From NCBI GenBank assembly GCA_965649115.1, contig CBFGJN010000052.1:1-14042 (forward strand): 14,042 bases of DNA, in the 5' to 3' direction. Position numbers and translations under genes: made by a program. Positions 1,407 to 13,883 of the stretch are shown piece after piece. This DNA is from a candidate division WOR-3 bacterium (GTDB lineage: Bacteria > Hydrothermota > Hydrothermia > LBFQ01 > DSFT01). Below the pieces are notes generated by a model. The model was not told where the DNA came from, made no database searches, and was given only the letters and a program-made list of their open reading frames with translations. Numbering within the stretch: the stretch's first letter is position 1; each line of letters starts with the position of its first letter.

Positions 1407-2410
1407 AAGTTTCTGAAATTTCTAAAATTTTAAATAAAAATTTTCAAGGGGAGGATTTTGAAGTAAATTATGTTAGGGAGATTGAAAACGCAGATGAGAA
1501 TTCAATAACATTTTTATTTGATAAAAAATATGATACTGATAAAATGGTTGGTCTTCTAATAAGTTCATTTATTCCAAGTAATATAAAATATAGAGCAATT
1601 ATTCTATGTGAAGATGTTAAATTAGCCTTAATTAAAATTTTAGAATTATTTGATTGGCATAAAATATCAAAAGAAAAATTTATTTCAGAAAAATCAACAA
1701 TAAATGAAAATGTTGAAATAGGCGATAAAACTACAATTATGGACTTTGTATATATTTCAAAAAATGTTAAAATTGGAAAGAATTGCTTAATTTATCCATT
1801 TGTTTATATTGGAGAAAATGTTAAAATTGGAGACAACTGTATAATTTATCCACATGTTTATATTGGAGAAAATTGCTTGATAGGAAATAATGTTATTTTA
1901 CATTCAGGTGTTAAAATTGGTTCAGATGGTTTTGGATATTATAAGAATTTAAAAATTCCACAAATTGGAAATGTAATTATTGAAGATGATGTTGAGATTG
2001 GTGCTAATAGTTGTATTGATAGAGCAACAATTTCAAGCACAATTATTAAGAAGGGAACAAAAATTGATAATCTTGTTCAAATAGCACATAATGTTGTAAT
2101 TGGAGAAAATTGTATTATAGCAAGCCAAGTTGGAATAGCAGGAAGCAGTAAAATTGGTAATAATGTTATTTTGGCAGGACAGGTTGGAATTGCAGACCAT
2201 ACAATTATTGAAGATAATGTAATTTTGCTTGCAAAAACAGGCGCAAATGGTCATATTAAAGGTAATAATATATATGGAAGTGCCATACCTCCCTTTGAAA
2301 GAACAAACTATTTAAGAATTATAAACATTATAAAAAAACTTCCAGAAATCTACGAGCTATTCAAGAGGCTTAGCTCATCAAATAAAGAAACATCCTCAAA
2401 AAATTCATAA
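1403..2410 (+). CDS. lpxD: UDP-3-O-(3-hydroxyacyl)glucosamine N-acyltransferase LpxD
   Basis: Has an N-terminal uridine-binding-like domain, hexapeptide left-handed beta-helix repeats, [26 protein letters not shown] and [12 protein letters not shown] (catalytic His). ATGA overlap with rseP. Confidence 0.95.
1761..1868 (+). repeat. Tandem 54-bp coding repeat within lpxD (two adjacent beta-helix coils)
   Basis: Units 1761-1814 and 1815-1868 match at 47/54 nt by manual count. They encode [18 protein letters not shown] and [18 protein letters not shown]. Confidence 0.8.
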
Positions 2411-4263
2411 TAGTTATCACTCATAATAATATCATATCCATCAACAAAGTAAATATAATCTCTACAATTTTTTGAACCATAAAACTTATTACCCTTAACA
2501 ACAATATATCCATCACTAAATGCCAAAAATTTAATTTCATTATCTATTTTTATCTCCTTATTTTCAAAACCTTTTGTTTTAATAACTGATTTTAAAGAAC
2601 CATCCCTATGATAAGTTTTTATTTCACCATTAAGATAAGCAATAGAAAGATAGTCATCAAATCGCTTAATACCTGTAATGGGCTTTGAAGGATTATAAGA
2701 TAAAACTTGCTTAATATCCCAAATATCAGTAAACAAATAAATTCCAAGTTTGTCACAAACACAATAATAATTCTTATATTTTGAGATAAGTTTAATCTCA
2801 CTATTTGATATATTATATTCTCTAATTTCATCATTCTCCAAAACAACAATTTTACCATCTTCCGTTCCAAGGATTACTCTTTTGTTATCTAATAAATATG
2901 AACTAACTCTTAAATTTAATGTTTTTTGAACTTGTCCATTCAATTTACAAATATCAACTCTATCATCAAAAATTAAAAACAATAAATTATTATAAAAGAA
3001 ATCATTCAAGCTAACTTTAATTGAATAAACTTCATCAAACTTTTCCAAATCAAAAACCTTCAAAACGCCATTACTATAAGCAAAAAGGTAATTATCAAAA
3101 ATTTTAATTAGGTTAATTTTTTCATTTGAAATGTCAATTTTCTTTAACTTCTTCAACGTTTCAAATTCTTTAAAGGCGATTTTTTCTTTAAGCTTATAAA
3201 CAAGAATATATCCATCACAGCCAAGAAATAGATAATTATCATTAAAGCATATAGAATAAACATTATCACTAATTTTGATAGATTTTTTAAGTTTATAATC
3301 GTTTAAATCATAAACTTTTAAATTATTCAATTTGTCAAATGTTATAAGAAAATCATTATTGTAAGAAAATGTAACTTCATCAGAAAGTGATAAAATAGCT
3401 GAATTTTTTTCAAAATCATAAAGGTAATGTGTTTTATCTTTCATAAGAATAAAATTTTTAATAAAACCAACGATATTTTCCGTAGGAATTTCATATTCAA
3501 AGACTTCTGATAAAGCTTTATTATTTTCAGAAGCATAAATAATTTCTCCTTCATGAATAAAAACAAATCCCTTATCTAAATCAATCCTAACATTCAATTG
3601 AGGTAATTTATCATAAACATCAGCCAAATCATAAACGATATCATTATCAAAAATTTTAACACCCTGCTTAATTTTACCATAATAAACATAAACAACATCA
3701 TTATTTAATTCAAGAGACAAAATTTCACTTGGAAACTCTTTTTCATTTATTTTCACTTCTGACTTTATATTATAAACTATCAACTTATTTCCAATTGTAT
3801 AAAACAGATAATCTTCAAGTTTTTCATAATGTCCATATCCACAACCATATTCCCCAATTTCTTTAAGAAAATAGAACCAATTTTCGTAATAAATCCAAAA
3901 TCTAACAAGTCCATCTTCCCCTCTACTAAATAATAAATTATCTCTAAATTTTACATCTCTATATTTACTTTTCGTAGGAAATCTAAATTTTAAAACTGGA
4001 TATGAAAATCCACTCTTTTTTAAACTTTCAATAAGCTCATCAGATATAAAACCATCTAAATTATCAATAGCGGAGGGTTCTATGGATAATGACTTCTTCA
4101 ATAGAGAATAAAAGCTATCTAAAACCTTTTGAACATCAATAGCCATTTCCTTTGAGAGTATTTCTACAACAGTTTGCATTTTAACAGAACTTCCTTTATA
4201 TAACTTATAGTATTCAACAAATCTTCCAATAAAAGCAATTTCCCAATCATTTAACTTAACCAT
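2350..4263 (-). CDS. WD40/beta-propeller-like protein with an N-terminal helical domain; function unknown
   Basis: 637-aa ORF with strong SD AAGGAGG. Repeated blade-like motifs: [63 protein letters not shown]. No obvious signal peptide. Confidence 0.75.
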
Positions 4264-5535: not shown

Positions 5536-6011
5536 TAACTTTCTCTTAAAGCACTAATTATTTGGTTTTCAAACCATTCTTTACTCCTATAACCGATAGC
5601 TTTTGCTTTGACTTTACCATCTTTACCAATAATGAATGTTGTTGGAAGACCATTAATACCACCGAATAATTTTTCTATATTATCATTAGAATAACCAATT
5701 ATATAATTTATACCCATACTTTTTACAAATTCTTTAATTTGCGATTCCTTCTCACCAACATTAAGTCCTATAAATTGAACTTCATTTTTATATTTCTCTT
5801 GAAGCTCAATAAAATGAGGAATCTCCTTAGTACAAGGGGGACACCAAGTAGCCCAAAAATCAACAATAATAACTTTACCATAAAATTGAGACAAATCTAA
5901 AACTTTATTATCAATTGTTTTAAACTGAAAATTTGAAACTTTATCACTTGAAAAACTTTTCTCGCAACCTAACACAAATAAACCTAACCAAATAAACCTA
6001 AGCATAAACAT
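5535..6011 (-). CDS. TlpA/ResA-family thiol:disulfide oxidoreductase, probable lipoprotein
   Basis: DFWATWCPPC active site, cis-Pro motif GLPTTFII, and an N-terminal signal ending in a lipobox-like LFVLGC. Confidence 0.92.
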   Translation of the reverse strand: MFMLRFIWLGLFVLGCEKSFSSDKVSNFQFKTIDNKVLDLSQFYGKVIIVDFWATWCPPCTKEIPHFIELQEKYKNEVQFIGLNVGEKESQIKEFVKSMGINYIIGYSNDNIEKLFGGINGLPTTFIIGKDGKVKAKAIGYRSKEWFENQIISALRES

Positions 6012-6034: not shown

Positions 6035-6958
6035 TTATTTAAACTTAACAACAATTTTTTCTAACTTTATACCTCCTCCTTCATAATATCCAGGCTTTAA
6101 AACGAGGTTCCCTTCCTCAATAGGTAATCTACTCATTATGAATTGTTTAAGAATTCTCATTCTTTCTTCCATAACACCCATAGCCTCTGGACTTGGATAG
6201 TAAGTTATCTCAATAGGAGAAGTCCATGGATAATTCTCCTTCAATATATTTAATGCTTCTATAATTCTATCTTCTTGACCTTCTCTAAAAACAGCAAATC
6301 CCTTTTCAAAGACATCTCCAATATCAACAATTGTGTATTTATATCCACCTTCTTCATAATAATAACCTTTTACAGAAAAAGGCTTACTTAATTCTCTTCT
6401 TGTTTCTCTACCATCAGAAACTGTTATTCTATAATGGAATAATTGACCAGGTTCAGCTACAGCTTTACCTTTAGTATCTTTACCATCCCAATAAACAAAA
6501 TCAGGTAATTTACCTTTTCCTGAGTACTCTTTTAATTTATTACCCCAAGAATCATAAATCTCAATTTTCCATTCTTTAACATTTCTATACTTCTTATTAA
6601 ATTCACCAACATTTAAAGGAATTTCCCTATATACATTTATAGGATAAACAGGCTGACGGATAAACAAGTTTTCAAGCTTTATAACCTTTCTTATTTCATC
6701 TTCAATTGTTTTAGGAAGTCTAAGCTCAAGTTTTCTCTCCTTTCTATAAAGTAATGAATCTATTGGCTCAAAAGGAGCAAGTGTAACATCAGTTATTGGC
6801 TTAACAGCATCATCAATTGAGTACTCAGCCTTTTCAACAACTTCTTCCTCTTGCTCAGTTCCTGAACCAGCAGATTGTTGTTGTTGCTGTTGTTGTTGCT
6901 CCTGAGACATCAAAAAACTAACAAAAGCAAATAAAATTAAAAATTTAAATATTCTCAT
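6035..6958 (-). CDS. Exported protein with FlgD/CTD-like Ig domain and a degenerate OmpA-like C-terminal domain
   Basis: Signal peptide MRIFKFLILFAFVSFLMSQ followed by a polyQ/acidic linker. WKIEIYDSWG...VYWDGKDTKG...YRITVSD is an FlgD-Ig pattern. The C-terminal beta-alpha pattern VFEKG...IIEALNILKENY...IEIT...EERMRILKQFI looks OmpA-like. SD AAGGAGG. Confidence 0.7.
   Translation of the reverse strand: MRIFKFLILFAFVSFLMSQEQQQQQQQQSAGSGTEQEEEVVEKAEYSIDDAVKPITDVTLAPFEPIDSLLYRKERKLELRLPKTIEDEIRKVIKLENLFIRQPVYPINVYREIPLNVGEFNKKYRNVKEWKIEIYDSWGNKLKEYSGKGKLPDFVYWDGKDTKGKAVAEPGQLFHYRITVSDGRETRRELSKPFSVKGYYYEEGGYKYTIVDIGDVFEKGFAVFREGQEDRIIEALNILKENYPWTSPIEITYYPSPEAMGVMEERMRILKQFIMSRLPIEEGNLVLKPGYYEGGGIKLEKIVVKFK
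6875..6898 (-). repeat. Trinucleotide microsatellite (CAA)3CAG(CAA)4 encoding Q8
   Basis: + strand reads TTG x4, CTG, TTG x3. Confidence 0.9.
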
Positions 6959-6969
6959 AATCTCCCTCC

Positions 6970-8088
6970 TTATGTTAGAACAAATCTAACAGTTAATCTT
7001 CCTTTTTCCTCAGGTTTTCCAGGTTTAGGAGCAAACTTCCACTGTTGAAGTGCTTGGATAGCAGCATTATCCAAATCAGCATAACCTGATGAACGGACAA
7101 CTTGTATATTAAATACATTACCATTAGCATCTACTGAAAATGATAAAACGACAGTTCCTTCCCAACCTTGCTGTTTAGCTCTCTTCGGGTATATAGGTTT
7201 TACCCTATTGAGAATTTGCCTATTTGCTACTTCACCTTCAAGTTGCATACCAGCAGGAGCTGAAACACTCGCTACTTCCTGAACTGATGGAGCAGAAACT
7301 GTTGGTTTGCTAACCTCCACCCTAACCTCACTAGCAAGACTTGGATTTTGAGTAAGACTAACTGCACTTCCTCCACCAATACCACCACCTACATCAGTTC
7401 CAAGTCCAAGACCACCACTTCCTCCACCTTCAATTCCTCCACCAAGCGAAATAGCTGGCACTGCTTCTTTTGATAATATGTCAGATATACTAGCACCTTT
7501 ACCAGTGACACCTACAACAACATCTGCAACGCCAACATCAGCTAAGTTTTGAGAACTAATATCTATTTCAGCTTGTAAATTAGCTATATTCTCTATATTT
7601 GTTTTACTTAAATCCACTTTAACATCAAGTTGTTCAGTCTGAACAGAAGGCATATTTAAAAGTCTTGGATCTATATTCACATTAACATCAAGTTTAGGAC
7701 CACCACCAAGACCAGGTGTTGGTTTTGGGAGTTCTGTTGATCGAGTTAAGAGTTTTGAACTTAAATCAATTTTCTTTTCTTGACCAGGTTTATTATCTTC
7801 CTTCTTAGCTTGTTCAGGCTTCTTTTCCTCCTTCTTTTGAACTTCCTTTTTCATTTGTTCAACTTTCCTTTGAAGTTTTGGATTTAAAAACTTTGATTTC
7901 ATAGCCTTTTCTTCAAGAAGTTGAATTTCCCTTAACCTTGCTTCCTCAATAGCCTTCGCTATCTGACTTCTTAATGTCCAAAGAACACCAGCATGGATAA
8001 GAATAGCAAAAATTAGAAAAATCAAGAACCTCCTCTTTGACCCCCTATCTTCCTCCCATTCTGGGAGGACCACTTGTCTCTCTCTCAT
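6970..8088 (-). CDS. tonB: Energy transducer TonB family protein
   Basis: Single N-terminal TM helix with His (IFAILIHAGVLW), a long low-complexity linker and a TonB C-terminal domain (PIYPKRAKQQGWEGTVVLSFSVDANG...RSSG...LDNAAIQALQQWKF). SD GGGGGTGA. Confidence 0.92.
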   Translation of the reverse strand: MRERQVVLPEWEEDRGSKRRFLIFLIFAILIHAGVLWTLRSQIAKAIEEARLREIQLLEEKAMKSKFLNPKLQRKVEQMKKEVQKKEEKKPEQAKKEDNKPGQEKKIDLSSKLLTRSTELPKPTPGLGGGPKLDVNVNIDPRLLNMPSVQTEQLDVKVDLSKTNIENIANLQAEIDISSQNLADVGVADVVVGVTGKGASISDILSKEAVPAISLGGGIEGGGSGGLGLGTDVGGGIGGGSAVSLTQNPSLASEVRVEVSKPTVSAPSVQEVASVSAPAGMQLEGEVANRQILNRVKPIYPKRAKQQGWEGTVVLSFSVDANGNVFNIQVVRSSGYADLDNAAIQALQQWKFAPKPGKPEEKGRLTVRFVLT

Positions 8089-8100
8089 GTTATCACCCCC

Positions 8101-8535
8101 TTATGTTGTTCTTTTGATAACTGCTAATGTTATCCTTTTACTTCCACCTCTTTTAACTGCATCAATAGCATCCAAAACTGTTTTCCAATCAACCGATTTG
8201 TCCGCTCTTATTACTACCAATTGTTCTCCCATTTCTGCATCAGGATTTTTTGATTTATATTCCTCTTGTGCTTGCTTAACTAATTGCGTTAATGTTTGTA
8301 AATCAACTTGTTTATCTTTAAAATACAATGTTCTATCTTTCTTTATAGAAACTGCTATACTTTGCTCTAAGTCAGCTTCTATTACCTTTGCCTTTGGAAC
8401 TTCAACTTCAACACTTGTGCTTTGGAACATTTGCTTAGAAGCTATTATCAAAGTTATAAATATAAATGCAAAGATATTAGCAAGATTAAAGACTGCTTGT
8501 GCAACCTCGCCTTCTCCACCCTTAGCCTTTGCCAT
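8101..8535 (-). CDS. exbD: ExbD/TolR family protein (non-canonical, Asn at the conserved Asp position)
   Basis: N-terminal TM helix, VEVPKA, and periplasmic motif VVIRADKSVDWKTVLDAIDAVKRGG. SD GAGGAGG. Confidence 0.88.
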   Translation of the reverse strand: MAKAKGGEGEVAQAVFNLANIFAFIFITLIIASKQMFQSTSVEVEVPKAKVIEADLEQSIAVSIKKDRTLYFKDKQVDLQTLTQLVKQAQEEYKSKNPDAEMGEQLVVIRADKSVDWKTVLDAIDAVKRGGSKRITLAVIKRTT

Positions 8536-8537
8536 AA

Positions 8538-8972
8538 TTAACCTCCTCTTTTCATTATTAAAACATCACCAGCACCCTTACTCTTTAAGAAATCTATCAT
8601 TTGAACAACATTGTCATATACAACTTCATTATCAGCAGAAAGAAGAGCATTCTTTTCTATACTTCTTGCTAAGAGCTTTGGAACTAAATCTTCAAGTTGT
8701 TCCTGCGTAACAACTTTCTTATTTAATTCAATAGTCCCATCTGCTCTCATATGAATACTAACCTTAACATCGGTCTTAATTTGCTTTTGTTGTATAGGTC
8801 TATTTAATTTTGCTGCCATAGAACGACTTACAAAAATTCCTGATTCAACAAGAAAAGGAATTGTAAGAACGAAAACCTTTACAAGAGAACCCATAACATC
8901 GGTTAATGAAATGAGGCCCGCTGCGGGGACCTCAGCTTCTACTGAGCCATGTTCCATTCTTCTCCTTGGCAT
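8538..8972 (-). CDS. exbD: ExbD/TolR family protein
   Basis: TM segment LISLTDVMGSLVKVFVLT with the conserved Asp, and LLSADNEVVYDNVVQMIDFLKSKG. ATG at 8972 is preferred over the GTG at 8981 because SD GAGGGGGTGA sits at 8978-8987. Confidence 0.88.
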   Translation of the reverse strand: MPRRRMEHGSVEAEVPAAGLISLTDVMGSLVKVFVLTIPFLVESGIFVSRSMAAKLNRPIQQKQIKTDVKVSIHMRADGTIELNKKVVTQEQLEDLVPKLLARSIEKNALLSADNEVVYDNVVQMIDFLKSKGAGDVLIMKRGG

Positions 8973-8977
8973 TAAAA

Positions 8978-9634
8978 TCACCCCCTCGTTGCTTGATATT
9001 CCCTAAGGATAACTAAAAACTCTTGAACAGCTGCTTCAATTCTTGAAACAAGAACATCAACATTCCTATTAAAGATATTAAAGAAAATAACAGCCAATAC
9101 TGCTATAATAAGTCCTGTCCATGTAGCTACAAGGGAAGTAGATATTCCTTCACCTACAACCTCTGGACCACCTGTTCCAGTGACTGCTATTTCGTGGAAA
9201 GCGTGGATTAGACCATCAACTGTTCCAAACAAACCAAGAAGAGGAGCTAAAACGCTTATAACACTTATAGGTGTTAATCTCTGAGTTAATCTATCCTTTT
9301 CGTTTAGAATTCTAGCGTACATAAGTTTCTCAACTTCTTCGGGAGGAAGTTCAGCATTTTGAAGGCCAACTCTTAGAACATTTCTTATAGGTGTATCTTG
9401 ATCACCAAGTCTCTTCAATGCACCCTCAATATCTCCTTCTCTAAGATGTGTTAGCGTTTCCTTTACTATCCTATTAGCATCAGGTTCTCTTCTTCTGTTG
9501 TAAGCTATGAATCTTTCAATAACAAGAGCAATAAGGATAATTGAAACCACCAAGAGAATGAACATTGGGAAACTTGAAAAATAGGTTTTGGGTCCTACGA
9601 CCCCATCCCAAACTGCATATAGTTTAAAGATCAT
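8978..9634 (-). CDS. exbB: MotA/TolQ/ExbB proton channel family protein
   Basis: Three TM helices, including LAPLLGLFGTV.G..AF, GIS..LVAT..GL.IA and IERF after TM1. Strong SD AAGGAGGTGA. Confidence 0.93.
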   Translation of the reverse strand: MIFKLYAVWDGVVGPKTYFSSFPMFILLVVSIILIALVIERFIAYNRRREPDANRIVKETLTHLREGDIEGALKRLGDQDTPIRNVLRVGLQNAELPPEEVEKLMYARILNEKDRLTQRLTPISVISVLAPLLGLFGTVDGLIHAFHEIAVTGTGGPEVVGEGISTSLVATWTGLIIAVLAVIFFNIFNRNVDVLVSRIEAAVQEFLVILREYQATRG

Positions 9635-9651
9635 CTTCCTTCACCTCCTTC

Positions 9652-12243
9652 TTATTTAGGTAAAATTTGTAAAATTTGATCTATTTGGCTTACCATTTGT
9701 GTATTTCCCTCTTGTTCAAATAATGTTCTTGCTTGTTGTAAATAAGTTATTGCTTCTCTTGAATTACCGAGTTGAGAATAAGAATAACCTATCCAATATA
9801 ATGTATTTGCTTTGTTTTTACTTTCTGGAAACTTTTGCAATGCTTCTTGACCTATTTGAATAGCAGAATTAAAATCACTTGAAGCTAAATATGCTCTCAT
9901 AAGGTAATCATAAACATTTTCAATTTGTTGTCCATTAGGGAAGAAATCTTTATATTTCTTTAATGCTTGAATTGCTTGTTGATATTTCTTCTGCTTCAAA
10001 TATAAAGCACCAGCAGTATATAATGCTTCTGAGGATTTAGGACTGTTTGGAAATTCATTAGCTACCCTAAAGAATAAATCTGCTGCTTTTTCCTCATCAC
10101 CATTTTGATAAGCCTGGGCTGCTTGATAGTATAAGGCTTCTGCTGCTTTATCACTTGCCGGATATTTTTGAGCAAGTTGTTCAGCGTACTTAGGATCTTG
10201 TGTTGAAGCAACTAAGTAAACATCTTCAACCCTTTTTCTAACATCAGGAGCAAGCTCGTGATCTGGATATAAGTATAAGAATTTCTCATATACTTGAATT
10301 GCTTTATCAAATTCTTTATTTACTGAATAGTTCCTACCTAATGAGTACATTGCTCTTGGTGTTATAGGATGACCAGGGAAATGCTCAACCTCCCATTCTA
10401 ATAACGCTATCGCCTTATCAAGTTGTCCAGCTTTTACATAAATATCAGCTGCCCTATAAGCAGAAAGAGCAGCTCTTGGATGATCAGGATATTCATTAAC
10501 TACCCTCTCCCAAAGTCTAACAGCATCACCATAAGATTTAAGTGCAAGAGCTGCAAATCCTTGGAAATACAAAGCTTCTCCACTTTCATACCTTGGAGTA
10601 TATAATGCCGCAATAGCAAAGTCTTTAAATGCATCCATATATTCAACCTTATTGAATTTTGCAACACCTTTGCCAAGGAAAAGAGCAATAATTAATGAGG
10701 TATCACCTCTTGCTCTAACAGCACCATCTATGGAATTAAAGTGCGCCAGTGCATCATCATATCTTTTTTGATGATAAGCTATCCAACCAAGACCAAGCCT
10801 TGAAAGTATTACTAAATCTCTCGTTAATTGTTTCTTGATGTTTATATTATATCTTAATTCTGCTTCAGTATAAGCACCTGCATAATAGTGAGCTTCAGCT
10901 AAACCATAAACGTACCAACCTTTCCATAAATCAAATGAGGTATCTTGGGCTTCTGGTCTAATCGTATCTTGCATTTCAGAATAGTAGATATTACCTTTTA
11001 ATAAGGCTTCCTTGAATTTCCTATCACGAACAAGTGATAACATCTCCATAGCCATAGAAGGTTTTCTTAGAAATGTTTGCTTATAATTTTCAATTACGAG
11101 CTCAAAATTCTTAGCAGCAGGTGTGAATTTTCCAAGAGAATAATCAATTGCACCTCTGGCATATTCACCGATTCCTGCCTCTTCTGGTGGGAATTTCATT
11201 TGCTTCAATTGATCAGCCATAGTATAAGACTTTAAAGTATCTCCAACAAAGAAATTAGCTTGCATAAGTCTTATAAATGAAACATTATAAATATCTTGAT
11301 CATTTGCTTTTGAAAGTGCAGTTTCATAGTACTTAACAGCTTCCTTATATTTAGCTTTTGCATCATCTGCCTTCCCTTCTTGCTTATATTGATTACCCCA
11401 TTCTCTTTCAGCATTTCCAGCAAAATAAGCAGCTAAATTAGCAAATTCAAAATTCTGCTTCTTTGAAATTAATGTTAATTTTTCAATAGAACTTTCAAAT
11501 TCCTTCATTCTATATAAAGAAATACCCCAGTAGTACTGAACCCAATCTGAAAATAATGAACCATGATATTTTTCAATAAATGTTTTCGCTAGCTCAGCAG
11601 TCCCCTTATAATCACCATATATAAAATTAGCCTCAACCATAGCATAAGATATAAATGGTTCTCTTGGTGTATTCTTATATTTTTCTAATAGAACCTTATA
11701 TACTCCAATAGCTTGAAGTGGTCTTTGTAATAATGCTAAACTTCTTGCATAATAAAATTGAGCTTCAGGAATATCAGTTATATCTTTTAATTTTTCAATA
11801 GCCTCATCATATCTTCCTTCTCTATAATCAATTATTCCAAGAAGCATCTTTGTTCTATTTGAATTTTTATAATATGGATATTTTTGAAGTTCTTGAATAA
11901 CCTGCTTTGCTTCCTTAGGGTCTCTAAAATTCGTAAAGAATACTGAAATAGCATAAGCAACTTCACCTTTTAAATAAGGAAGTTTTTTCTCAATATATCC
12001 ATCTTTATATAATGACATAAACTGATCATAAGCAGCTTTATAATCACCTCCATTAAATCTACACTCAGCTATTCTGTAAAGAAATTCTTTTTCATAACCG
12101 AATTTTCTAGCATCTGTAAGAAGTCTTCTATATATCCTTTCCGCTCTATCGTACTTTCCAGCAAAGAATAGTGCCTCTGCTTCTCTATATGATTTATAAA
12201 ATTCTTCATAGGTCAAGCTTATAATCAAAATTGTACCCATCAT
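9652..12243 (-). CDS. Large tetratricopeptide-repeat protein (CpoB/YbgF/BamD-like repeats)
   Basis: Repeating helical TPR pattern across 863 aa, with many (Y/F)P-x-(S/H) turns (NEYPDHPRA, HFPGHPIT, LYPDHELA, EFPNSPKS, KFPESKNK). Short hydrophobic N-terminus. SD GGGGGTGA; overlaps the upstream stop. Confidence 0.88.
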   Translation of the reverse strand: MMGTILIISLTYEEFYKSYREAEALFFAGKYDRAERIYRRLLTDARKFGYEKEFLYRIAECRFNGGDYKAAYDQFMSLYKDGYIEKKLPYLKGEVAYAISVFFTNFRDPKEAKQVIQELQKYPYYKNSNRTKMLLGIIDYREGRYDEAIEKLKDITDIPEAQFYYARSLALLQRPLQAIGVYKVLLEKYKNTPREPFISYAMVEANFIYGDYKGTAELAKTFIEKYHGSLFSDWVQYYWGISLYRMKEFESSIEKLTLISKKQNFEFANLAAYFAGNAEREWGNQYKQEGKADDAKAKYKEAVKYYETALSKANDQDIYNVSFIRLMQANFFVGDTLKSYTMADQLKQMKFPPEEAGIGEYARGAIDYSLGKFTPAAKNFELVIENYKQTFLRKPSMAMEMLSLVRDRKFKEALLKGNIYYSEMQDTIRPEAQDTSFDLWKGWYVYGLAEAHYYAGAYTEAELRYNINIKKQLTRDLVILSRLGLGWIAYHQKRYDDALAHFNSIDGAVRARGDTSLIIALFLGKGVAKFNKVEYMDAFKDFAIAALYTPRYESGEALYFQGFAALALKSYGDAVRLWERVVNEYPDHPRAALSAYRAADIYVKAGQLDKAIALLEWEVEHFPGHPITPRAMYSLGRNYSVNKEFDKAIQVYEKFLYLYPDHELAPDVRKRVEDVYLVASTQDPKYAEQLAQKYPASDKAAEALYYQAAQAYQNGDEEKAADLFFRVANEFPNSPKSSEALYTAGALYLKQKKYQQAIQALKKYKDFFPNGQQIENVYDYLMRAYLASSDFNSAIQIGQEALQKFPESKNKANTLYWIGYSYSQLGNSREAITYLQQARTLFEQEGNTQMVSQIDQILQILPK

Positions 12244-13352
12244 ATCCCTTTCACCCCCTTCTTAACATTTACTAATCCTCCTCTTCTTTTATATATCTTG
12301 CCATCTTCCGTTCTAACGATAAATTCATAATAATAAACACCTTTTCCTACATATCTACCTTCTTCATCAACAACATGCCAATAAATACATTCACTTGGTG
12401 GAGGACCATCCCCCCAATATGTCTTATAAATTTTACCCCATCTATTTGTTATATTAAATGTCCACCTTGAAACTTTTGAAGGTAAAATATACCTAAAACA
12501 AACCTTCGTAACACTTGCCTCAGCTTCTGGCAAAACTTCTATAATTTTAGGTGAAGATTCAGCCCAAACTGTATAACCAAAGAACTTAACAGTTAAACCA
12601 AATGTCCAAACTTTATTTTTACTTTCAGCTTTAATATCATTAACACTTACATCTCCTAATATATCAACAGTATTATAAACATAGATTAAACCCAAGCCTG
12701 CTGGAATTTTATGTTTTATGATTGAATCATTTGGATTATAATTATAGCCAAATCTTAAAAATAAAGGATAAAATGGATCAATTTCAAAACCAATAGATGC
12801 CAAATCTTGACTTTTAACATTTCTCGCAAATGTTGAATTTAAATCCATAGTCATTGCTAAACTTCTCCCAATAACAGGCAAAGGATAATTTGCTAATTGA
12901 ATACCAAATCTTAAAGACAAGGCATTTGGTGTATCTAAATTCTCAGCAGTGAAACCAAACATAAAATAATCACTAAAATAAAAACTAAATCCACCATAAA
13001 CATGTGGTCTTAAATTATTCTTTAATAATGTATCTGATGTCCATGGGTATTGAACACCAAGACCTATATTAAAACCACTAAAATTCCTTGCCAAAACACC
13101 ATAAATCATACCATTTTTGGTTGTATCAATAGAACCTGCCAAACCAATTGAAATGAATCTATTTGGAATAACAATGCCACCACCATAATAACCATTTTGT
13201 GAATAAAATCCACCAATCATAACTCTACTTGCCATTGAAGCAGCAGAAGGATTAAAAAAGATACCATCAACCCTTTCAGCATATGCATTATAAGCAGAAC
13301 CCATAGATATAGGATGAGGTCCAACCATTAAACTAAAAATAAAGTTTATCAT
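12240..13352 (-). CDS. PorV/PorQ (FadL-like) family outer-membrane beta-barrel with C-terminal FlgD/CTD-like Ig domain
   Basis: The N-terminal GPHPISMGSAYNAYAERVDGIFFNPSAAS matches the G-x-R-x2-(G/A)MG-x-A...D...(Y/F)xNPA signature of PorV/PorQ/FadL-like barrels. Amphipathic strands follow (FNIGLGVQY, LFLRFGYNY, WTFGLTVKF), then an ~100-aa Ig-like tail. Confidence 0.75.
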   Translation of the reverse strand: MINFIFSLMVGPHPISMGSAYNAYAERVDGIFFNPSAASMASRVMIGGFYSQNGYYGGGIVIPNRFISIGLAGSIDTTKNGMIYGVLARNFSGFNIGLGVQYPWTSDTLLKNNLRPHVYGGFSFYFSDYFMFGFTAENLDTPNALSLRFGIQLANYPLPVIGRSLAMTMDLNSTFARNVKSQDLASIGFEIDPFYPLFLRFGYNYNPNDSIIKHKIPAGLGLIYVYNTVDILGDVSVNDIKAESKNKVWTFGLTVKFFGYTVWAESSPKIIEVLPEAEASVTKVCFRYILPSKVSRWTFNITNRWGKIYKTYWGDGPPPSECIYWHVVDEEGRYVGKGVYYYEFIVRTEDGKIYKRRGGLVNVKKGVKGI

Positions 13353-13355
13353 ATT

Positions 13356-13883
13356 CTATAATTTTAAAGCATAAGTTTTAAAAACTTTATAGACAGGCCC
13401 AGATGGATAAAGAATACTCTCAAAAAGCGTAATTTTTTCAATTTGGAACTCAAAATTAAATTCAATAGGTTTAAAGTTTATGGCTTTTAGTTTTTTATTT
13501 CTTGCTATGGTTATATGAGGAGAAAAGGGTTTATTATCGCCATAATTTTTAAAGCTCCTCTGAATATCCTTAGCTAAGTTTTCTAATTCTTCATTACTTT
13601 CAACACCTATCCAAAGAACATTTAATTCATCGCCATAAACAGGAAATTTACCCAAATTTTTAAGTCTTAAAGAAAAAACCCTATATCTATTTGAAATTTC
13701 ATATAATTTTCTATCAATTTTATCTATTTCTTTATCAGTAATTTCACCAAGAAATTTTAATGTTATATGATAAAGATGATAATCAACCCACTTTAAATCT
13801 AAAACTTTAATCATATCTTCTATTTTACTATATATATAATTTTTTGCCTCTAAGGGTAAATCAAGACCTATAAACATTCTCAT
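13356..13883 (-). CDS. thpR: RNA 2',3'-cyclic phosphodiesterase (2H phosphoesterase, LigT/ThpR)
   Basis: MRMFIGL start, two HxT motifs (YHITLKFLG, FSPHITIAR), LFES.L...GPVY at the C-terminus. SD GAGG. Confidence 0.94.
   Translation of the reverse strand: MRMFIGLDLPLEAKNYIYSKIEDMIKVLDLKWVDYHLYHITLKFLGEITDKEIDKIDRKLYEISNRYRVFSLRLKNLGKFPVYGDELNVLWIGVESNEELENLAKDIQRSFKNYGDNKPFSPHITIARNKKLKAINFKPIEFNFEFQIEKITLFESILYPSGPVYKVFKTYALKL

Follow-up and report, generated by a model that had tools for sequence, protein, structure and literature searches.

A conserved seven-gene operon of a candidate division WOR-3 bacterium, possibly a proton-driven envelope machine acting on a type IX secretion-type anchor barrel

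Seven adjoining genes on a 14,042-nucleotide (nt) stretch of DNA, the window, which is contig C52 (CBFGJN010000052.1) of the candidate division WOR-3 bacterium assembly GCA_965649115.1, encode a FadL/PorV-fold barrel, a tetratricopeptide repeat (TPR) protein, an ExbB/TolQ protein, two ExbD/TolR paralogues (ExbD-a and ExbD-b), a TonB/TolA-like transducer and a protein with immunoglobulin-like (Ig) and OmpA-like domains, here called p307. The source is a hot-spring bacterium, known from a metagenome-assembled genome of 1.85 Mb that is 94.5% complete. The operon would be a variant of the Ton/Tol/Agl type of proton-driven envelope machine. Our preferred interpretation, which we hold tentatively, is that the seven genes specify one dedicated envelope-spanning machine that would act on an outer-membrane anchor barrel of the kind associated with type IX secretion systems (T9SS).

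All seven genes lie on the minus strand and are contiguous, as had been described in an earlier reading of this DNA made from its letters alone (the sequence-only reading). In the direction of transcription they are the barrel gene (13352-12240, 370 amino acids (aa)), the TPR gene (12243-9652, 863 aa), the ExbB/TolQ gene (9634-8978, 218 aa), the genes for ExbD-a (8981-8538, 147 aa) and ExbD-b (8535-8101, 144 aa), the transducer gene (8088-6970, 372 aa) and the p307 gene (6958-6035, 307 aa). The six junctions between them measure, in the same order, -4, +17, -4, +2, +12 and +11 nt, so that every one is below 20 nt. GGAGG or GGGGG motifs precede six of the seven starts, which agrees with the Shine-Dalgarno sites formerly ascribed to most of the set. 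The exception is the barrel gene, whose start has no Shine-Dalgarno motif and lies downstream of AT-rich sequence; it may have an internal promoter or a near-leaderless start. The hairpin said to close the unit is real but small: GGGGG-TTAAATT-CCCCC at 6033-6017 on the minus strand, with a 5-bp G/C stem and then a T-rich run, in the gap that separates the p307 stop from the next gene on this strand, whose ATG is at 6011. It is possibly a weak terminator or attenuator. Genes on the same strand flank the set on both sides, with LigT 3 nt upstream and thioredoxin-like, ADH-like and other genes downstream. Because the strand does not switch at either side, the limits of the unit rest on its conservation in relatives with differing flanks. 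A promoter-like match (TTTAAA, 18 nt, TAGAAT) was noticed upstream of the barrel gene within 13353-13382; it ends at 13353, one base before the barrel ATG (13350-13352), and the LigT stop is 3 nt upstream of that ATG.

The conservation of this unit was assessed in a sample of 151 genomes of the phylum, the host included. Matches of at least 238 bits to a profile of the barrel and its Ig domain were present in 89 genomes, and matches of at least 150 bits to a p307 profile in 93. For the best 40 p307 matches, a barrel match was found on the same contig at a distance of 5-7.5 kb in 36 cases, and in the other four the two were on separate contigs of fragmented assemblies. Among loci fetched around full-length barrel matches (n=20, from about 20 families), the complete seven-gene set was conserved in order and strand in 16, and this order is held while identity to the window drops to 22-30%. 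The conserved gene order that the sequence-only reading had expected in relatives is therefore borne out across the phylum. All seven genes are also present at locus L099, with a 4-kb insert; L082 and L085 reach contig ends, and at L092 the barrel and TPR genes stand alone, the remaining genes being elsewhere in the genome. A second ExbB gene, fused to an ExbD, is present in loci L094-L096. A split arrangement was seen in genus g27 (G015:C17, G040:C72, G050:C1), where the barrel and TPR genes share one contig and the Ig-OmpA gene is on another, 17-18 kb from SprA; because all three genomes belong to this genus, the split counts as one event.

Comparison with a 93%-identical relative gave ratios of nonsynonymous to synonymous substitution (dN/dS) of 0.016-0.086 for the seven genes (barrel 0.086, TPR 0.032, p307 0.016) and of 0.17 for both flanking genes (LigT, ADH-like). 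All seven genes are under strong purifying selection. The metatranscriptomic run X5 holds 48% of the sampled operon words, and contigs from the RNA library are identical to the window on five of the seven genes, namely those for p307, the TonB-like transducer, ExbB, the TPR protein and the barrel. The DNA run X2 covers 30/30 window bins; gaps of X5 outside 6098-13132 (most bins) were not counted as evidence. In the Atlas, look-alikes of the barrel and p307 occur most often in WOR-3, Krumholzibacteriota, Elusimicrobiota and Calditrichota. The literature listings gave no paper on WOR-3 in connection with type IX secretion, and the listings and passages covered on ExbB, ExbD, TonB, PorV, TPR and T9SS or on T9SS in other phyla of the Fibrobacteres-Chlorobi-Bacteroidetes (FCB) group contain no description of the operon.

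The motor genes are clear members of their broad families and fall short of the specific ones. ExbB matches PF01618 with 103.2 bits against a cut-off of 22.9, misses the ExbB equivalog TIGR02797 (54 bits vs 206), and has TolQ as its best NCBIfam match, which is also under its cut-off (84.4 vs 221 bits); the closest solved chains are those of TolQ (50.6 bits) and ExbB (46.2 bits). ExbD-a and ExbD-b match PF02472 with 48 and 60 bits, and both are under the TolR cut-off (33.7 and 44.4 vs 127.3 bits). At the position that we take to be that of the transmembrane Asp, assigned by eye against the E. coli ExbD/TolR motif, ExbD-a has the Asp (motif LTDVM) and ExbD-b an Asn (motif LANIF). Exactly one ExbD of each pair bears the Asp in every locus read. 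The carrier is paralogue a in the clade of the window and paralogue b in the other clade, fused forms included, a division that agrees with the two main clades in the tree of ExbB proteins. In this tree of 31 proteins, 23 operon-type ExbB proteins are split from seven receptor-linked ones on a single branch (support 93/90, found in 98% of bootstrap trees). Within the phylum, then, the motor is set apart from ordinary receptor-serving Ton systems, as would be expected of the dedicated motor that had been proposed.

In the transducer, an N-terminal transmembrane helix containing a His is followed by a segment rich in Lys and Glu and by a conserved middle motif (ADVVVG...S..ILS.EA.P); a Gly-rich linker then leads to a TonB_C head at residues 297-370 (PF03544, 79.7 bits; TIGR01352, 80.1 bits). 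The His of the helix, His32, is kept in 13 of 15 aligned orthologues. The match to TolA (TIGR02794) reaches 23.7 bits with a cut-off of 59.45, and that to the AgmX/PglI tail model NF033768 reaches 32.5 bits with a cut-off of 40. The 14 open reading frames (ORFs) of the window that were scanned are without matches to Plug, TonB_dep_Rec, TolB/PD40 or Pfam OmpA, in line with the earlier statement that TonB-dependent receptor, tolB and pal are missing from it.

Seven Plug-domain genes are found in the host genome, all outside the window, and their presence bears on the idea that this is an ordinary Ton system in disguise, with a motor that mainly serves receptors elsewhere and neighbours only loosely associated with it. 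One receptor is encoded beside a second Ton operon (C3:4035-15986, minus strand), which encodes ExbB, ExbD, ExbD and TonB with a 1085-aa TonB-dependent receptor adjoining, and continues with a 763-aa protein, a PorV-family barrel, a 735-aa protein with a T9SS C-terminal domain (CTD) and a TPR lipoprotein. Both ExbD proteins of this C3 operon have Asn at the Asp position, so that no ExbD of the genome other than ExbD-a of the window bears the Asp, and no pair other than that of the window has a transmembrane Asp. Furthermore, a hybrid TonB of 269 aa (C15:14586-15395, minus strand) combines a window-type, motor-docking N-terminus with a receptor-type head: it shares 51% identity over 69 aa with the window TonB in the N-terminal transmembrane region and middle motif, and 69% identity with the TonB of the C3 operon in the head. 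These sequence relationships suggest that in this genus the operon motor also serves TonB-dependent receptors through the hybrid TonB. As an account of the operon itself we nevertheless consider an ordinary Ton system very unlikely, given that the seven genes stand together in 16 of the 20 loci, including those of genomes whose receptor operon has its own motor, and that the hybrid TonB was examined in the host genome (G000) only.

The AlphaFold model of the barrel protein (predicted local distance difference test (pLDDT) score 88.3, predicted template modelling (pTM) score 0.82) predicts a very short hydrophobic N-terminus, a plug-like N-terminal segment, a 14-strand barrel at about residues 43-259 and a C-terminal Ig domain at residues 261-365. 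Structural comparison with VIA-align gave a near tie between FadL (Z 29.1) and PorV (8gl6_F, Z 27.6, root-mean-square deviation (rmsd) 3.0 with 254 residues aligned), the next unrelated barrels having Z scores of at most 17.6, and Foldseek found the same two families. The fold of the predicted structure thus agrees with the PorV/FadL-like barrel recognised in the sequence-only reading. Profile searches place it less closely: the protein is below the cut-off of the NCBIfam model PorV_fam NF033709 (22.9 bits vs 90) and matches no Pfam family, PF03349 (Toluene_X) included, a model that gave sub-threshold matches in two of the 24 relatives scanned. The Ig domain has a T9SS-CTD-like fold (Z 10.9 against the C-terminal domain of PorU, VIA-align). 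Even-stranded barrels of this kind keep both termini in the periplasm; since the strand number is even here, the termini, with the Ig domain, should face the periplasm. Compared with its relatives, the window barrel is the shortest, and it is without an N-terminal GG.PG segment that is kept in other families.

The resemblance to FadL raises the alternative of an unconventional TonB-dependent importer, in which TonB would pull the plug of a FadL-like barrel and so admit a hydrophobic or polymeric substrate, with the TPR and Ig-OmpA proteins as accessories. The barrel is as close to FadL/TodX as to PorV (Z 29 vs 27.6), the hatch region of FadL can be aligned with its N-terminal segment, the transducer carries a TonB_C head, and TonB-dependent cellodextrin uptake is hypothesised for the similarly composed Fibrobacter succinogenes genes FSU_2400-2403 in the excerpted text of Raut et al. 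(Raut et al. 2019, PMC6851124). However, the operon includes no Plug domain or TonB-box receptor, and import needs neither an 863-aa TPR protein nor a periplasmic Ig handle or OmpA-like brace. The window barrel has, moreover, lost the conserved N-terminal segment, which would be the most obvious TonB-box candidate, and a CTD protein encoded upstream of the barrel in relatives suggests surface display. An importer is, on balance, quite unlikely.

This upstream protein is a secreted Ig-repeat protein of about 550 aa, encoded directly upstream of the barrel gene and on the same strand in 12 sampled loci (L082, L084, L086-L090, L093, L096-L099); shorter CTD-bearing ORFs occupy the position upstream of the barrel in L091 and L094. 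The ~550-aa proteins are mutually homologous, with 23-36% identity along their length, and consist of Big_1/invasin-like Ig repeats and a terminal domain matching FlgD_ig/CHU_C/Por_Secre_tail. All five of the upstream proteins scanned match the C-terminal ends of the NCBIfam PorU and/or PorZ models. In Bacteroidota, the retained tails of PorU and PorZ dock on PorV and PorQ. In most families, then, the full operon is one of eight genes: that for a surface protein with a T9SS tail comes first and is followed by those for the barrel that probably anchors it and for the remaining proteins of the set (TPR protein, motor, transducer and p307).

Two periplasmic candidates complete the set. The C-terminal half of the 863-aa TPR protein consists of repeats of the YbgF/BamD type, with matches to Pfam TPR families over residues 553-845; the protein exceeds the cut-off of the YbgF/CpoB model TIGR02795 (154 bits vs 90.1, as five repeated stretches) and also passes the BamD model (112.6 bits). 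Its N-terminal 520 aa gave just 11 matches among 5.8 billion proteins, and this part is specific to this TPR protein. A search of PDB sequences with the TPR protein gave no matches beyond YbgF and TPRs of designed or consensus type. A lipobox cysteine is missing from it; N-terminal signal-like peptides are found in relatives and here, the signal peptides of both the barrel and the TPR protein being unusually short in this class. One match to the N-terminal half, protein P0176 of Halalkalibaculum sp. (996 aa; E 4e-6, 26% identity, 57% of the query), is the sole one from a named cultured organism.

The secreted p307 protein begins with a signal peptide and a disordered poly-Gln/acidic region, after which come a FlgD-type Ig domain at about residues 110-190 and a degenerate OmpA-like domain at 198-306, and its model has pLDDT above 90 for residues 100-307. 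The Foldseek matches are the Ig domain of FlgD and, at an rmsd of 3-4 Å across some 124 residues, OmpA-like domains from FopA, MotB and DotD-type chains. Profile scans returned no Pfam OmpA match and only a weak match to CHU_C, and p307 has no lipobox and no Cys in its signal peptide. Its poly-Gln run QEQQQQQQQQ (window 6862-6893, p307 residues 20-31) is absent from the 94%-identical relative L049; the protein has 307 aa here and 295 aa in L049, and this low-complexity stretch is therefore variable in length. A repeat at 6868-6953 was left out of the read mapping.

TPR, motor and OmpA-like parts together recall the Tol-Pal system, and the operon could be its analogue in this lineage, an outer-membrane tethering and constriction system comprising TolQ, two TolR, a TolA-like transducer, a CpoB-like TPR protein and a Pal-like p307, in which the barrel replaces TolB or the lipid anchor. 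TolQ and TolR are the best NCBIfam matches of the motor genes, TolQ is the closest solved chain, the TPR protein scores over the YbgF/CpoB cut-off, although in repeated stretches of a protein that passes the BamD model too, and p307 has an OmpA-like fold. The host genome has just two MotA/ExbB genes and no TolB over cut-off (the best TIGR02800 match, outside the window, has 52.4 bits vs 343). Excerpts of a recent survey report no identifiable tol-pal loci in Bacteroidetes, and non-helical TolA proteins outside the gamma-proteobacteria (Williams-Jones et al. 2025, PMC12204202). On the other hand, the equivalog cut-offs of TolQ, TolR and TolA are missed widely, and neither a TolB-like propeller nor a lipoprotein Pal is encoded. 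A Tol-Pal role also leaves unexplained why, in most of the phylum, the operon includes a PorV-type barrel and a surface protein with a T9SS tail as integral parts. Roughly one in three of the sampled genomes is without the operon, and four of these lack any second motor. We regard a Tol-Pal analogue as unlikely.

The components of the T9SS itself are widespread in the phylum, SprA_N matches being present in 143 of the 151 genomes. The host genome encodes SprA (G000:C32:4946-5878), PorV (G000:C10:31100-32032, 182 bits), a second true PorV-family protein on C3 (120 bits) and a full-length PorU-like protein whose 393 bits are just under the cut-off (G000:C5:31065-34130), and has 47 T9SS CTD matches, of which 41 are over the cut-off. 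At 94.5% completeness it yielded no matches to TIGR03513, TIGR03517, TIGR03523 or PF03781. GldL was over its cut-off in none of 81 genomes, GldM_1st in none of 61 and GldN in none of seven, and the FGE-sulfatase family (the GldK fold) was found in three of 41 genomes of the class, the host not among them. The combination that the sequence-only reading had asked about, sprA and CTD cargo with no detectable GldK, GldL, GldM or GldN, is thus seen in the host; the silence of GldL, GldM and GldN is weak evidence because these models matched in no control genome either. In genus g8 the FGE-sulfatase genes are 314-aa ORFs with no obvious gldLMN-like neighbourhood by ORF sizes.

A Ton-like motor that powers the secretion of all CTD cargo in SprA-positive phyla lacking GldKLMN would fit the distribution of SprA, the PorV, PorU-like and CTD proteins of the host and the failure to detect GldKLMN, and the sequence-only reading had offered such an alternative energiser as one possible function. 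This is contradicted by four relatives without the operon, G006, G020, G007 and G084, which are 100, 99, 100 and 85% complete in 3, 4, 30 and 2 contigs, respectively. Each has a single MotA/ExbB gene, which in G006 belongs to an ExbB-ExbD-ExbD-TonB-TonB-dependent receptor operon and in G007 and G084 to an ExbB-ExbD-ExbD-short-TonB set; none has a p307 match, and their barrel-profile matches are weak only. All four nonetheless retain SprA matches over the cut-off and 36-50 CTD matches. Since SprA and CTD proteins persist in lineages that lack the operon, it is not what drives the T9SS in general in this phylum, and a general energiser is extremely improbable, the more so as the GldL/GldM/GldN silence on which it leans comes from models that matched no control genome.

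Set against known systems, the operon resembles several and belongs to none: the Ton, Tol-Pal, PorV and FadL memberships each fail at least one tested defining feature. By analogy, the Agl-Glt machinery of Myxococcus appears closest in composition, and the drive of SprB-SprF/PorG through GldK closest in logic. The Agl-Glt core complex is encoded by aglR, aglQ, aglS, gltD, gltE, gltG and gltC, and according to the excerpted text its function outside Myxococcus is unknown and it is reported in Fibrobacter too (Luciano et al. 2011, PMC3169522). As far as that text goes, it has, like the window, one TolQ-like and two TolR-like proteins, a membrane-anchored TonB-like protein, secreted TPR proteins, encoded together in one operon, and a tie to outer-membrane proteins; this likeness, which the sequence-only reading had drawn, holds for composition only. 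Agl-Glt differs in having three TPR proteins instead of one giant and an FHA domain in its transducer, where none is found here, and the window has in addition an Ig-OmpA protein and a barrel of the FadL/PorV fold that carries an Ig domain, again as a comparison of composition.

Two further clusters have comparable arrangements. Genes FSU_2396-2403 of F. succinogenes S85 are given as OmpA family, TPR, TPR, ExbB, ExbD, ExbD and TonB, and in the same excerpt the cell envelope contains more of their products on cellulose, and the TPR and OmpA proteins are reported from a cell-surface multiprotein complex (Raut et al. 2019, PMC6851124). The same gene kinds are thus adjacent, judged by names and consecutive locus tags, and the excerpt mentions no PorV-like barrel. 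In the Planctomycetes-Verrucomicrobia-Chlamydiae (PVC) group, clusters comprising a gene for a TPR protein, a tolQ-like gene, a heterologous tolR pair and a transducer with a vWA head are described in the part of the survey available (Williams-Jones et al. 2025, PMC12204202). They match the front half of the window operon (TPR, TolQ-like, two unlike TolR-like proteins, then a membrane-anchored transducer with a conserved His), whereas the window has a TonB_C head instead of vWA and adds the barrel and the Ig-OmpA protein.

The T9SS offers a parallel for the barrel. Its anchor pairs are PorU-PorV, PorZ-PorQ and SprB-SprF, and SprF/PorG is disulfide-linked to a GldK/PorK track moved by GldLM, as set out in the excerpted text of Liu et al. 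(Liu et al. 2025, PMC12635249). Like these pairs, the operons of relatives encode a surface protein with a retained-type CTD beside its cognate 14-strand barrel, and, by analogy with the T9SS drive, a proton-driven 5:2-type motor is presumed to act on an outer-membrane barrel from the periplasm. Unlike that drive, the window has an ExbB/ExbD/TonB-type motor, with no GldLM and no GldK/N track detected, and its barrel differs from PorV in carrying its own periplasmic CTD-like Ig domain, in falling outside PorV_fam and in having no surface-protein partner in the host. The operon is like Tol-Pal in that its motor is TolQ/TolR-like, its transducer is long and bears a TonB/TolA-type head, its TPR protein contains CpoB-type units and the periplasmic p307 has an OmpA fold; it departs from Tol-Pal in having two different TolR paralogues and a barrel, and neither TolB nor a lipoprotein Pal. 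With the Ton system it shares the Pfam ExbB, ExbD and TonB_C memberships and the conserved His of the transducer helix, and differs in having no Plug-domain or other TonB-dependent transporter partner, one ExbD without the Asp and a separate motor clade.

Elsewhere in the window, the plus strand at 162-2410 carries genes for RseP (site-2 protease) and LpxD, and these confirm that the host is a lipid-A-making diderm. Four genes downstream of the operon, a minus-strand gene at 2350-4263 encodes a 637-aa protein with only sub-threshold WD40/beta-propeller matches, for which a PDB sequence search yielded nothing useful as a solved relative. A plus-strand ORF of 207 aa at 8087-8710, antisense to both exbD genes, is probably spurious.

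Considering all of these data, a dedicated machine acting on a T9SS-type anchor barrel might work as follows. The ExbB pentamer would house a heterodimer of ExbD-a and ExbD-b with a single protonatable Asp, and proton flow would move the TonB-like transducer, docked by its His-bearing transmembrane helix and conserved middle motif. The TonB_C head, aided by the periplasmic TPR scaffold, would then pull the Ig handle of the barrel or its N-terminal plug, whilst the Ig and OmpA-like protein would brace the assembly on the cell wall. As output, a surface protein that the barrel holds would be moved, tensioned, loaded or released, much as SprB-SprF is dragged by the GldLM-driven track in Bacteroidota and the Glt proteins are driven by AglRQS in Myxococcus. 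The sequence-only reading had proposed a trans-envelope complex of this general kind; comparative evidence upholds its view of a dedicated, uncharacterised system, and that TonB acts on the barrel by way of the TPR protein is a step that we infer.

Several observations weigh against this interpretation. Physical coupling between the operon proteins is likewise something we infer, and the TPR, TolQ/TolR and OmpA-like parts suit a Tol-Pal-like role equally well. Wall binding by the OmpA-like domain is uncertain because p307 has no Pfam OmpA match. The upstream surface protein is absent from the operon in the window's own family and, by tblastn, from the rest of the host genome; because that family is without this protein and its barrel is without the GG.PG segment, an adhesin-handling role may not apply here, and the window barrel works either alone or with an unrecognised partner. 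Among the X5 contigs listed, none spans a gene junction, and neither strand nor level nor a single transcript can be read from such contigs. Finally, the operon is missing from about one third of the sampled phylum genomes and is accordingly accessory.

A broader version of the same idea, which we consider rather doubtful, is that in SprA-positive phyla without GldKLMN a Ton-type motor with a one-Asp ExbD heterodimer has been coupled to a PorV/PorQ-type barrel and propels or loads its surface protein. If true, the GldLM-track drive of SprF/PorG would have an independent counterpart based on TonB, and Ton systems, T9SS anchors and the Agl-Glt machinery of Myxococcus would be linked. Proton-driven 5:2 motors power flagella, TonB-dependent uptake, Tol-Pal, gliding in Myxococcus, and the T9SS and gliding in Bacteroidota. 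The operon would add a further output to this list, in which a Ton-type motor connects to an outer-membrane anchor barrel of T9SS style, conserved throughout an uncultured phylum and, judging by the Atlas taxa, beyond it, and the single Asp per ExbD pair in all loci read offers a natural experiment on motor design.

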